Positions 48,735-59,207 of a stretch of 64,000 nucleotides of DNA are shown here, in pieces. How positions within the stretch are numbered: position 1 is the first letter of the stretch; each line of letters opens with the position of its first letter. The notes beneath the pieces are model-generated. The model ran no database searches, had not been told where the DNA came from, and saw nothing but the letters and a program-made list of their open reading frames with translations. The stretch comes from Leucoraja ocellata. Lineage: Eukaryota. Both the position numbers and the translations under genes were made by a program. The stretch spans positions 6,944,001 through 7,008,000 of the forward strand of contig JAWMAR010000070.1 in NCBI GenBank assembly GCA_036785375.1, read 5' to 3'.

Positions 48735-49273
48735 TCAGTAGAAACTTTCAAAGACTGACAGCCAGACCCATTCTTCACAAGTCCTATTATCTTGAGTGGA
48801 CCAGACACAGGTATATAACCCTTCATCTTTCTGTTCTACGCTGCCAGGATCAACGAGGCGTCATGTATCACATGGATATCATTATGCTTGAACGCCAGCG
48901 GTACTCTGATCGCTTCGCTATGTCAGGAGGTTTAAGACCATACCTGGCAATCGTAACATTGTATTTTCTCCAAATTAACATTCAAGAGTTGATCGTATTC
49001 GCGGGATACTTTACAGGGCAGCGTAATGATACTACCCAGAGCTGCATCGAGCATATCCTCGTTAAATGATGCACCGTAATCACTGTCAGAATCTGACTCG
49101 TTCGTGCATCTTGGAAACCGTTCATTGGTGACTTGTCGAGGGGCCCGTGCGTTCCGCCCGGCCAAGTTTGCTTCCTCTCCCCATTCTCTGGAGATCGGAC
49201 CTGTTCCAGTTACGGAGACTTGCCACACCATCTCCACAAGGACCATGAATCCTATCCATCTCTGCAGTCCCAT
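48735..49273 (-). pseudogene. Secreted single Ig V-set domain gene, copy 1, with about three single-base frameshifts (pseudogene or assembly error)
   Basis: Same leader and pro region as copy 2. Across frames it reads ALGSIITLPCKVS..WRKYNVTIA..DASLILA..DEGLYTCVWSTQDNRTCEEWVWLSVFESFY*, with the stop homologous to copy 2. Confidence 0.8.
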
Positions 49274-49861
49274 GTTCCTGTGGGTGAAACAATGGGTCAC
49301 CTTATTGCAACTCAGTAGGATTCATGATGACATTCCCTGAACCCGCCCAGAGTTGGGGAATCGAGAACCAGAGGACATCGGTTTAAGGCGAGGGGGGGGG
49401 GGGGGGGGGGGGAAAGACTTCATGGGAAACTGAGGGTGACTTTTTTACACAAAGGGTGGAGGGTGTTTGGAACGAGCTGCCGGACGAGGTAGTTGAGGCA
49501 GGTACTATCACAATGATTAAGAAACAGTTAGACAGGTACATTGATAGGACAGGATTAGAGGGGTAAGGGCCAAACGCAGGCAGGTGGGTCTAGTATTGAT
49601 GGGGCACGTTGGTGGGCCGGCAAGTTGGGCCGAAGGTCTCGCTGTGACTCTATGACTCCATCACTTGTCCCACCCCGGTCATTCCTCCTTCTCCCTGGTC
49701 CTGTCTAGCAGAAGGTACAGAAGCTTGAAAGCGCGCACCACCAGACTCAGGAACAGCTTCTTCCCCTCTGCTATCAGGCTTCTGAACTGGGGGAACAGTG
49801 AACAGAGACAATCCCACCCCCATCACTCACAGACACTTGAAGGATCCACAGGGTTGGTTAC

Positions 49862-50020
49862 CAGCTCCGGAGTCTCCACACAGGGTGACGGGGTCGGTCT
49901 TGTTCTCATCCCCTGCCATCGCTCGCTCCTTTTATACCGACTCCCGGCTTCTCCTGCCCCTCATTGTCTGCCCTCACGTACATTCAACCAATCACTGCCT
50001 CCCACGGAGCATTGGCCGGA
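49862..50020 (-). promoter_or_regulatory. Ig-V gene copy 1 promoter and non-coding exon 1
   Basis: Near-identical to 59786-59945; TATAAAA at 49930-49936 (minus); donor at 49862/49861. Confidence 0.6.
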
Positions 50021-50444
50021 GTCAGCCGCGACCTCTCCACCCTCTGCCAAACGTGTCGTTGCATCAGCCGTTAACGTTTAACAAGAACAACGTCATCCCA
50101 GCTGCCAGCGGCCAACCAGGCGCCCCACACATCCTGCTTGTGTCTCCACCACGTCTCGTTCTGGTCAACTCAGAGATCCGAGTTTTTCGCGGCCATCAAA
50201 GAGGCGTCGAGACTGCGGCGGTGAAGGAGATATCGTGACCGCCATGGGCAGAAATCCTGGGGGGGGGGACAGGGGGCACGTCCCCCTATGCTTTGGGAGG
50301 TGGGGGACGATTCCCCCCCGCCCATGTTTTGTGTTCCAGACTTTATCAGACACTTTCTATGGGCAGAATCGTCCCGTTCGCGGGGCCTTTCAGCGCCCGA
50401 GCGGCTTAAAATCAAACTGCTGCATCGAGGCGATCGAGGCTCCC

Positions 50445-56400: not shown

Positions 56401-56540
56401 GTGTTCTGTGTCTTGTGTCTTCTGTTTGTGGGTAAGTGTGTCTGTTTAGTGTTCAGCCATGAGCGAATGGCGGTGCGGGCTCGATGGACCTGGTGGTCTA
56501 CTCTCGCACCTACTTTCTATGTTTCTATCTATGTTTCTAT
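53445..56540 (+). mobile_element. CR1-clade LINE, 5'-truncated, with open ORF2 (endonuclease + reverse transcriptase) and 3' UTR
   Basis: About 915 uninterrupted codons: DIVAITETWL, GDFN and SDHN (APE endonuclease); [21 protein letters not shown] and FADD (RT); ends in an ATGTTTCT-like tail. Confidence 0.95.
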
Positions 56541-58670
56541 ACAAGGATTGAACCCGCAGTGGTTTAGGTATCGTGAGGGGGAATTTGATGTACAGTCCAA
56601 AAATAAAGATTAGTTGTTCCAGTGCTTGACTCAGTGGTTTTTGACTGAACTAGACTGGGGGTAAGCTTGAGAAGAATGTATTTAATCCCACCCCCCCAGT
56701 ACCACCCTCCTTCTCCCTCTACCCCTTCCCACTCTCTCTCTACCCCCTTTCTCTCTGCCTCTCTCCTTCTCTCCCCCTCCTCTCTATCTCTCTAGGTATT
56801 GAAGAGGGAGGGTGAAGAGTAGGAAGAGGGGATGCGGCGAAATGAGCCGCGCCTGCATAGTTGGGGGCAATGAGTGAGTGGTGGAACATAGTGTTGGGGA
56901 GCGGGTGAGTGGTGGAATATTGTGTTGGGGAATGGGTAAGTGGTGGAATATTGCGTTGGGGAGCAGACCCAATGGATCTGTACTTGGTCTGCACAGTAAC
57001 TTTATATCACCAGTGGTGCAGTGTCCATCAGGGTTGTGTAGGGTTGTGGTGAGTGGCGTAGGGTTGTGGTTGGGGTTGTGCAGGCTGGTTCAACAACCTT
57101 GTGCTTGCTGGGAAGAAGCTGCTCTTGAACCTGGAGCTCACGGTTCTCAGGCTCCTTGTACCTTCCCCTCAGTAGTGGTGATAAGAGAGTGTGGCCAGGG
57201 TGGTGTGGGTCTATAGCTGGAAGACCGGGCTCCATACGGAGGTAAGAAAGCTCCTTGACAACCACAATTGACACCCAACGAGGGTCAAAACTGGACTCTA
57301 ATCAGCAGCCCTAACAATGCACGAGGGCAATGCAGGTGCGGTACAGTGGCGCAGCGGTAGAGTTGCTGCCTTACAGCGCTAGAGACCCGCCTTCGATGGT
57401 AACTACGGGCACTGTCTGTACAGTGTATGTACATTGTCCCTGTGACCATGTGGGTTTCCTCCGGGTGCTCTGGTTTCCTTTCAGATTACAAAGACGTGTA
57501 GATTTATAGGTTAATTGGCTTCAGTAAATTGTCCCTAGTGTGTAGGTTAGAACTAGTGTAGGGGTGATCACTGGTTGGGTTAGACTCGGTGGGCCGAAGA
57601 ACCTGTTTCCATATCCTAACATATTCAGTTTTTCAGAGCCCCGCGCGATGTCGGGACCAGCTCCACACAACTCCATACGGCTCCGGCGATCAAAGTGGGA
57701 CCGGCCCCGCGAGGCCGTACGGCTCAAGTGACCACGTTAGGTCGCGCTTGCCGCATGGAGTCGCATGCTCGTGGGACAGGCCCTTTAATCCGGCGATGTT
57801 GCCCGTAGTGAGCAAAAGTTGCACAAAGTTCACACCCAACTCAATGCTGGCGTACAAAGAATCACTCACACCGGCTGTCTTCAGGGCAGGCAGAAGAAAG
57901 TTTATTTAAATTAAACGTACATTTACCGGTGCAAGCAAGGTCAGTTCTCCTCACTGCATGCGATCCACGCTCACACCTTCCACGCTGCTCATCTTTATAC
58001 CTTTACTATTCCCTACTTAGTGTCAGAGTCAAACAATATGGAAACAGGCCCTTCCCCCAATACCATGTGCTCTAATTTTGCCCATTAATCTCCTATGTGG
58101 GACCTTATCAAATACTTCCTGCAAGTCCAGGTACACTACATCCACTGGCTCTCCATTGTCCCCAGATCGTCTGACCACTAGTACATCAGGGAGATTGTTT
58201 GTGTTCTTCTTAGTGAAGACGGATCCAAAGTTTTTAGTCTATAAAGGTCCAATTTTAGTCTGAACTAATTTTGCTAGTTATTTTTTAGTTATCTTCTGTT
58301 GCTCTTTAAAAGAGTTACCCAATCCCCTGGCTTTCCGCTCATCTTTGCAACGTTATACCTGTTCTCTTTTATTTTGATAGTGTCCCTGACTTCCCTTGTC
58401 AGCCACGGTCGCCCCTAACTCCCCATGGAATCTTCCTTCCTCTTTGGAATCCGGGTGCTCCGGTTTCGTCCCACACCCCAGAGACGTGCAGGTTTGTAGG
58501 TTAATTGGTCAGTGTAAATTGTATCTAGTGTGTGGGATAGAACTAGTATATGGGGTGATCACTGGTCCCCATTGACTCTGTGGCCGAAGGGCTTGTTTCC
58601 CTGTTGTACCTCTGAACGAAACTAAACTAAACTAGACTTTGCTACTGACCCTGGGACTGGCCCTGCTGAA

Positions 58671-59207
58671 TCAGTGAGAGATCATCAGCTGCATCAATAA
58701 TTCACAAACCGGTCTATCTCTATAATGGAACCAAACACAGGAATACGTCCCTGTATCTTCCTCTTTTACACCTGTCAGGAGCAACGTGGCGTCCTGTTCC
58801 CAAAGGACGTTTCGTTCCACGAACTTCCAGTGAACATCAGATCCCTTATAACGCTCATGCACTCTAGTATGGAAATAGGCAATTACAACACCATCTTTTT
58901 TCCATCTAACCGTGAGACTATTGTCAACGTTGGATACATTACATGGCAACGTAACAGAACCACCCAGAGATGCAACGAGCACCTTCTTGTTAATCGTTGA
59001 TAGGTGATGACTGATGGTATCAGAATCTGACTTGTCCGTGCATCTTGGAAGCGTTTCATTGGTGACTTGCCGAGGGGCCCGTGCGTTCCGCCCGGCCAAG
59101 TTTGCTTCCTCTCCCCATTCTCTGGAGATCGGACCTGTTCCAGTTGCGGAGACTTGCCACACCATCTCCACAAGGACCATGAATCCTATCCATCTCTGCA
59201 GTCCCAT
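58671..59207 (-). CDS. Secreted single Ig V-set domain protein (178 aa), copy 2, intact
   Basis: Acceptor cccacAG|gaacATG. Hydrophobic leader MGLQRWIGFMVLVEMVWQVSATG. V-set motifs GGSVTLPC, WKK, DATLLLTGV, DTGTYSC. Stop directly after the G strand; no transmembrane segment. Confidence 0.85.
   Translation of the reverse strand: MGLQRWIGFMVLVEMVWQVSATGTGPISREWGEEANLAGRNARAPRQVTNETLPRCTDKSDSDTISHHLSTINKKVLVASLGGSVTLPCNVSNVDNSLTVRWKKDGVVIAYFHTRVHERYKGSDVHWKFVERNVLWEQDATLLLTGVKEEDTGTYSCVWFHYRDRPVCELLMQLMISH

Follow-up and report, generated by a model that had tools for sequence, protein, structure and literature searches.

Nectins and PVR (CD155) serve as virus receptors. The nectin family is characterised by a V-C-C ectodomain, a transmembrane segment, and a cytoplasmic tail (PMC7286890), and AX6G and T(F/Y)P are its interface motifs (PMC5966540). 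The PSG-like genes of bats form a secreted, CEACAM-derived expansion with an IgV domain under diversifying selection and a proposed decoy role (PMC5594555), and in ruminant CEACAM32, gene conversion acts on the leader and introns and spares the Ig-domain exons (PMC7042247). The VCBPs of amphioxus and Ciona are secreted V-domain molecules of immune type (PMC4008424), and UrIg provides a non-rearranging V domain in a secreted elasmobranch protein (PMC12227049). The stretch analysed here (hereafter, the window) comprises 64,000 nucleotides of Leucoraja ocellata DNA, C70:6944001-7008000, where C70 is the contig JAWMAR010000070.1 of a 3.44-Gb genome. It contains two copies, A and B, of a gene encoding an apparently secreted protein with a single V-set domain. 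The analysis suggests that both belong to a batoid family derived from domain 1 of the nectin/PVR/TIGIT clan, with about 25–32 genes per haplotype in skates.

Both copies lie on the minus strand, and a preliminary description of the window had depicted them as duplicated genes with near-identical flanks and divergent V domains. This pattern holds: the copies have in common a 5′ cassette of ~1.07 kb at 97% identity and a 3′ flank of ~370 bp at 91%, and 58 of their first 63 residues are identical. As had been claimed, identity breaks +187 nt from the ATG (window positions 49086 in copy A and 59020 in copy B) and returns at the stop. Beyond residue 63, copy B and the intact 179-residue allelic twin of copy A (at C70:7319968) agree at 39/112 residues and 205/336 nucleotides. 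The cassette of copy B (59020..60096, minus strand), homogenised by conversion, spans promoter, exon 1, intron, leader, and the start of the linker; that of copy A (49086..50172, minus strand) has a TATA box at 49936, an exon 1 reaching 49831, an intron at 49830-49278, and the leader. The 3′ flanks occupy 58281..58673 in copy B, with AATAAA 300 nt past the stop, and 48357..48737 in copy A (both minus strand). Farther upstream, blocks of 0.45–1.1 kb match between the copies at 95.6%–99.6%.

The view of the pair as two genes stands for copy B and not, in this assembly, for copy A. Copy B (subfamily I; 58671..59207, minus strand) is an intact, single-exon open reading frame of 178 amino acids plus TGA. 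The coding region of copy A (subfamily II; 48735..49273, minus strand) stops after 113 amino acids, and three single-base indels, near 48976, 48892, and 48841, split its V domain over three frames. Over 2 kb of comparison with a paralog, one-base indels number 13 in the copy-A unit and one in its allelic twin, with similar numbers of substitutions (36 and 39, respectively). The frameshifts are thus probably local consensus or assembly errors, a judgement based on indel counts and not on reads, and a real pseudogene allele is the less likely explanation.

Further paralogs, anticipated in the preliminary description, do exist. A genome search combined with a leader scan found 59 family copies, 57 of them in C70 at 6.99–7.52 Mb and two on another contig, C16. 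Intact copies number 52 of the 59 and encode 37 distinct proteins in seven clusters, to which is added subfamily VIII, known solely from broken copies. Copies A and B mark the start of this tandem array, which is nested in a chitinase cluster and divided by a gap of 200 Ns at C70:7312930-7313129. The block after the gap (7313130-7565801, ~250 kb) repeats the preceding ~325 kb, unique flanks included, at about 95%–99% identity, with the repeat beginning from window position ~41.9 kb. Block 1 holds 32 genes (28 intact) and block 2 holds 25 (23 intact), with eight identical proteins in common; copy B is confined to block 1. Since the second block repeats the first together with its unique flanks, and since other genes are also doubled in the assembly, the blocks are probably two haplotypes of about 32 and 25 genes joined in tandem across a scaffold gap; a true recent duplication is the alternative to this probable reading. 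Several nectin-type exons are doubled elsewhere too, and hence, the assembly size is likely inflated.

Across the C70 subfamilies, the cassette from about −880 to +129/+187 is 97%–99.8% identical, and it remains 93% identical in the C16 copies. Its upstream edge is sharp, although some copies have a different intron middle. Between subfamilies, 263 of 985 four-fold degenerate sites differ in the V domain (27%; pairs non-independent) as against 13 of 798 in the leader (1.6%), while promoter and exon 1 diverge by 0%–1% among C70 copies; Nei–Gojobori values agree. This contrast shows that the V lineages are old and that they escape the gene conversion by which the promoter–exon 1–leader chassis is homogenised. 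The earlier suggestion of gene conversion is therefore upheld for the cassette; its extension to V domains exchanged as cassettes is not. Whole V segments swapped between chassis by conversion—an alternative bearing on the mechanism of diversity only—can point to subfamilies I and II, which differ by 4.4% in the 3′ flank and 0.9% in the promoter, yet at 5/20 four-fold sites of V. It can also point to subfamily I itself, in which mosaic blocks can be seen and incompatibility affects 24% of informative site pairs. The 3′ flank is, however, common solely to subfamilies I, II, VII, and VIII; subfamilies III, IV, and V/VI and the C16 copy are each bordered by DNA of their own, both 3′ and far upstream, and the 3′ edge of the cassette varies by subfamily between +129 and +187. 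In addition, the related skate L. erinacea carries relatives of subfamilies I, III, IV, V, and VII at 82%–99% mature identity, and a pairwise homoplasy index (PHI)-type test is not significant (p 0.21 and 0.08), leaving recombination within subfamilies suggestive. The private 3′ flanks and the L. erinacea orthologues of the V lineages favour spread of the promoter–leader cassette, and V swapping is considered very unlikely. Copies A and B taken alone fit either direction; the preference for cassette spread rests on the whole family.

Selection on the V domain had been flagged for a dN/dS check, and this ratio (omega) exceeds 1 in both large subfamilies, in which the V domain is under positive selection. 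Codon models, which assume a tree and to which assembly errors may add noise, estimate omega at about 3 in the 18 sequences of subfamily I and at 1.8 in the 13 of V/VI, and likelihood-ratio tests place both above 1 (p 1e-4 and 0.006, respectively). Across 11 subfamily representatives, omega is 1.5, a point estimate without a test against 1.

The protein has a consistent plan. In copy B, a signal-peptide-like segment (residues about 1–22; 59142..59207, minus strand) is recognised by hydropathy, with a helix at residues 7–19 in the AlphaFold model. The top 11-residue hydropathy window scores 2.1 from residue 6 and the best 19-residue window merely 1.27, and no hydrophobic segment reaches transmembrane length. 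An acidic propeptide (59067..59141, minus strand) follows, ending in R-A-P-R and then Q, a putative protease site; residues 8–52 are disordered in the model. PR followed by Q or K occurs in 42 of the 52 intact copies and RxxR in 41, and a protease may thus cut at xPR|Q. The V-set domain (residues 73–177; 58677..58991, minus strand) is matched by Pfam at residues 74–159 (E 3.8e-10), and AlphaFold models with confidence a V-set fold whose strands begin at about residue 73, preceded by a disordered propeptide and a bridge at residues 56–57. Besides the canonical cysteines C89 and C157, there are extra cysteines at C56, in the N-terminal extension, and C168, and all four are conserved without exception in 27 aligned sequences; C168 probably bonds to C56 as a second disulfide, with which the modelled bridge is consistent. 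In every one of the 52 intact copies, the reading frame stops at the end of the G strand or a little beyond it, and a stop follows V in RefSeq relatives as well. Representatives of the subfamilies differ in mature isoelectric point, from about 10 in the Gly/Lys-rich V/VI to about 5 in II, VII, and the C16 copy, a spread that hints at different ligand classes.

Relatives in databases are seven L. erinacea proteins and one Rhinoraja protein, all "uncharacterized", and a full-length Narcine bancroftii protein annotated "nectin-1-like". Word-indexed searches and the best 150 of 199 phmmer matches, which cover annotated genes only, gave no shark or other ray homologue beyond Leucoraja, Rhinoraja, and Narcine. 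The Narcine protein resembles the skate family in its leader, PR-Q site, four cysteines, and absence of a membrane segment, and it keeps both nectin interface motifs, the AX6G lock and the key in the form TYP. Of its 29 PDB matches, 26 are PVR, nectins, or CD96, and its Atlas model lies nearest nectin-3, -2, and -4. The top PDB match of the family profile is PVR domain 1 (D1), which is also the best single-stretch match of a skate-only profile. These motifs, structural matches, and the profile match place the family's origin in the nectin/PVR/TIGIT clan, and the evidence points away from CD300, B7, or IgNAR.

Several results pull against this placement. With the skate-only profile, JAML and CD226 outrank PVR when two-domain scores are summed, and Foldseek is unspecific, listing PD-L1 first by small margins. 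The AX6G lock (C′C″) is present in 20 of the 52 skate copies, all of subfamilies IV and V/VI, and is absent from the subfamily of copy B; the T(F/Y)P key (FG loop) is essentially lost in skates, persisting in 4/52 as a K-Y-P variant. For copy B, the ESM Atlas returns only generic V-set clusters. A tree agrees with the clan placement in setting Narcine between the skate family and skate nectin-clan exons (95/96), but its outgroups, picked by similarity to copy B, fell inside subfamily I, and it does not count as proof. In favour of the placement, the closest exons outside the family in the skate's own genome carry T-F/Y-P; they are presumably nectin-1-, TIGIT-, and CD200-like, names given by eye. 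A small cluster of such V exons, CD200/TIGIT-like by eye, lies at C85:1.36-1.74 Mb (L119, L121, and L122) and on C535; L121 is the best-scoring non-family domain against the family V profile and a candidate parent. A viral origin was considered and rejected: leader-only patterns found no relative in viral contigs, and viral structure matches were generic V-set domains at 11%–23% identity.

Although derived from the nectin clan, the family stands outside the nectin family proper, because it has no C domains and no membrane anchor and the key motif is gone in skates. It shares with the domain 1 of nectin, PVR, TIGIT, CD226, and CD96 the V-set fold, with PVR D1 as the best profile match, and the lock in Narcine, IV, and V/VI, together with the Narcine key. 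It differs from nectins in having neither a transmembrane nor a cytoplasmic part, a leader and V domain in one exon, a propeptide, an extra cysteine pair, and a multigene array under positive selection. The families that the preliminary description had put forward as closest (CD300/TREM, NITR, B7/butyrophilin, and IgNAR) are not its closest relatives, the evidence pointing to this clan. In CD300, TREM, and pIgR, the second disulfide lies between the C and C′ strands; the extra skate cysteines are at 56 and 168, with none in C–C′, and no such protein is among the listed PDB matches. The family also lacks the V-C ectodomain and transmembrane segment of B7/butyrophilin proteins, and CD276 (B7) ranks below PVR in both profiles and is absent from the Narcine matches. 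Unlike UrIg and IgNAR, it has no C1 domains, no split leader, and no J motif or recombination signal sequence (RSS): J-type FGxG/WGxG motifs occur in none of the 52 intact copies, no RSS-like site was found near these genes, and the window holds no exact RSS. As with VCBP, whose layout has two V domains to the skate family's one, there is an association with chitin binding, in that the array sits among chitinase/CBM14 genes; the skate proteins, however, stop after V without a fused chitin-binding domain, and the neighbouring CBM14 exons belong to chitinases.

We infer a function in immune recognition. The most likely job, to which we give an even chance, is to bind variable foreign ligands as secreted decoys or recognition molecules, comparable with PSGs. 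Decoys are favoured because nectins and PVR are virus receptors, subfamily I diversifies on the partner-binding face, and the bat PSGs provide an analogue: they too are secreted, derive from an adhesion family that pathogens exploit, and form a big lineage-specific expansion. The skate family differs from PSGs in arising from the nectin clan and not from CEACAM and in having one coding exon with a propeptide; moreover, skates are animals without a placenta. In the proposed mechanism, gene conversion would keep a single promoter and leader on all copies, and the common promoter would lead a single cell type to express them together as a mixture. After removal of the signal peptide, a protease cut at xPR|Q would release a V domain of ~130 amino acids, in which the second disulfide would pin the N-terminal arm to the G strand. 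Selection would block conversion in V and diversify it, in subfamily I on the front (GFCC′C″) face and the loops resembling complementarity-determining regions, the surface by which nectins bind partners. The targets could be viral attachment proteins or microbial adhesins exploiting nectin-type receptors, and the V domains would be released into a secretion such as that of mucus, the gut lumen, or the egg. More specifically, and tentatively, the genes may constitute a germline, co-regulated repertoire of soluble nectin-derived V binders, propeptide-matured and disulfide-stabilised, that neutralise pathogens at a mucosal or egg surface; if so, the repertoire would be a non-rearranging parallel to single-domain antibodies.

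A number of results weigh against the decoy proposal. The signal-like peptide, an assignment that does not come from a predictor, contains a glutamate. In subfamily I, 23 of 32 front-face/loop positions vary compared with 7 of 66 others, a set of positions defined after the variable sites were known, and V/VI shows no such enrichment (16/32 versus 31/66, p 0.83). Expression is near-blank: in four of 12 RNA runs (related species, tissues unrecorded, 1%–25% of each), depth on the leader was at most one-fold, in one run, with zero on exon 1 and no splice junction. Such coverage fits narrow expression and proves nothing; no RNA dataset is indexed as containing the copy-B exon.

The main rival, possible though unlikely, is a reproductive secretion made in a gland (seminal duct, clasper, or oviducal gland) and diversifying through sperm–egg, sperm–female, or egg-case interactions. 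Nectins act in spermatid adhesion, the common promoter suits a single secretory cell type, and narrow expression in a gland is compatible with the almost blank result of the four arbitrary RNA runs. Conversion follows the same pattern in CEACAM32, a testis-specific gene (PMC7042247). Many coexisting paralogs with a copy-number difference between haplotypes are, however, equally typical of defence families.

Quite unlikely is a role in modulating the skate's own network of nectin/TIGIT/CD226/CD96 type, in which the soluble proteins would bind host receptors and so block adhesion or natural killer (NK)- or T-cell signalling. The distribution of the AX6G lock and the presence of nectin-clan exons in the genome accord with this, as does the near-invariance of subfamily IV: between the two skates, 115/116 residues are identical in IV and 113/116 in Vc, figures that suit fixed host ligands no less than an arms race. 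Conserved partners are nevertheless hard to reconcile with omega above 1 and the front-face turnover of subfamily I, and the skate copies have lost the TFP key. Rodent MUP or ESP families are protein chemical signals, and a comparable identity signal, carried by mucus or urine and sensed through chemoreceptors, would suit small, disulfide-stabilised, processed proteins with a common promoter and haplotype copy-number variation. We know of no V-domain precedent for such a signal, and it is considered highly improbable.

Secreted decoys and recognition molecules therefore remain the favoured interpretation. The preliminary description's inference of an undescribed, diversified, apparently secreted single-V family is sustained by the many paralogs, the positive selection, and the literature: no description of the family, nor of any secreted, expanded offshoot of the nectin/PVR clan, was found in the literature searched, whose coverage stops short of subscription journals and the supplements of skate genome papers, and six gene or protein identifiers of the family retrieved no papers. 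The family and its nectin origin thus appear undescribed; the evolutionary pattern has precedents. In CEACAM32, conversion affects one membrane-bound gene with separate exons, whereas the skate boundary lies inside one exon and recurs array-wide, making the array an unusually clean case of concerted evolution halting inside a single exon. If the proteins are decoys, cartilaginous fish independently followed the path proposed for CEACAM/PSG, in which an adhesion receptor gives rise to a soluble decoy family, and skate pathogens as yet unknown would be using nectin-type receptors. The V domains are small and easy to express, and thus, tissue, processing, and ligand are directly testable.

The gene anatomy is uniform. 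In copy B, a TATA box (59860) and a short exon 1 ending at a GT donor (59754) occupy 59755..59860 (minus strand), followed by an intron of repeat-derived DNA (59212..59754, minus strand) with a repeat-type read pile-up and an acceptor AG 4 nt before an ATG in strong context. The TATA box is found in 58/59 copies, the exon 1 donor in 57/59, and the acceptor and Kozak context in 59/59. L. erinacea RefSeq models join exon 1 to the coding exon at the same junction and start translation at an ATG that lies 17 nt downstream of the TATA box; this ATG probably precedes the transcription start, and the short exon 1 is probably non-coding. Leader and V form one coding exon, while the frames of nectin-type V exons in the same genome open a few residues before the domain; the single-exon layout could be explained by retroposition or by recruitment of intron sequence. 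Two sources for the promoter were examined and rejected. Borrowing from the neighbouring chitinases found no blastn match outside intron repeats, and for a dispersed long terminal repeat (LTR)-like element, 65 genome-wide candidates were obtained, of which 40 were scored; all 40 lie inside the array, and the element is rejected at the sensitivity of this search.

Copy B lies in a recent tandem duplication unit (52253..60881; 99.2% over 8.6 kb at a 10.6-kb offset), the next copy of which starts at 62893 and extends past the window end. Within this unit is a long interspersed nuclear element (LINE) open frame of 941 amino acids with endonuclease and reverse transcriptase (53377-56202, plus strand), and the window is filled with many shorter LINE fragments and short interspersed nuclear element (SINE)-like repeats. 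Chitinase genes with GH18 and CBM14 exons (Pfam) lie left of the array (872..44574), and such exons also occur on its right; the cluster is multi-gene, on both strands, and some 3′ exons have more than one CBM14. Between window positions 44315 and 48700, 7–10 one-base indels per kb are seen against the second block, compared with mostly under 1.5 per kb elsewhere, and this poor-looking local consensus also hits a chitinase 3′ exon.

The five subfamily VIII copies, with an acidic V domain (C70:7119380, 7165062, 7207103, 7446113, and 7491516), are all frameshifted near the E strand, by which the subfamily is judged a real pseudogene lineage still carrying the homogenised promoter–leader. The C16 copies, one intact and one frameshifted, at 1774984 and 1786230, have a shorter propeptide and a promoter 93% identical to that of the array; they are transposed, and a PH-domain exon lies ~40 kb away. 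An orphan promoter with exon 1 occurs at C70:7260717 and at 7512134, with no coding exon found nearby, and the intron of the orphan unit is broken by an opposite-strand stretch that, judged by eye, resembles the pol fragment of an LTR retrotransposon.

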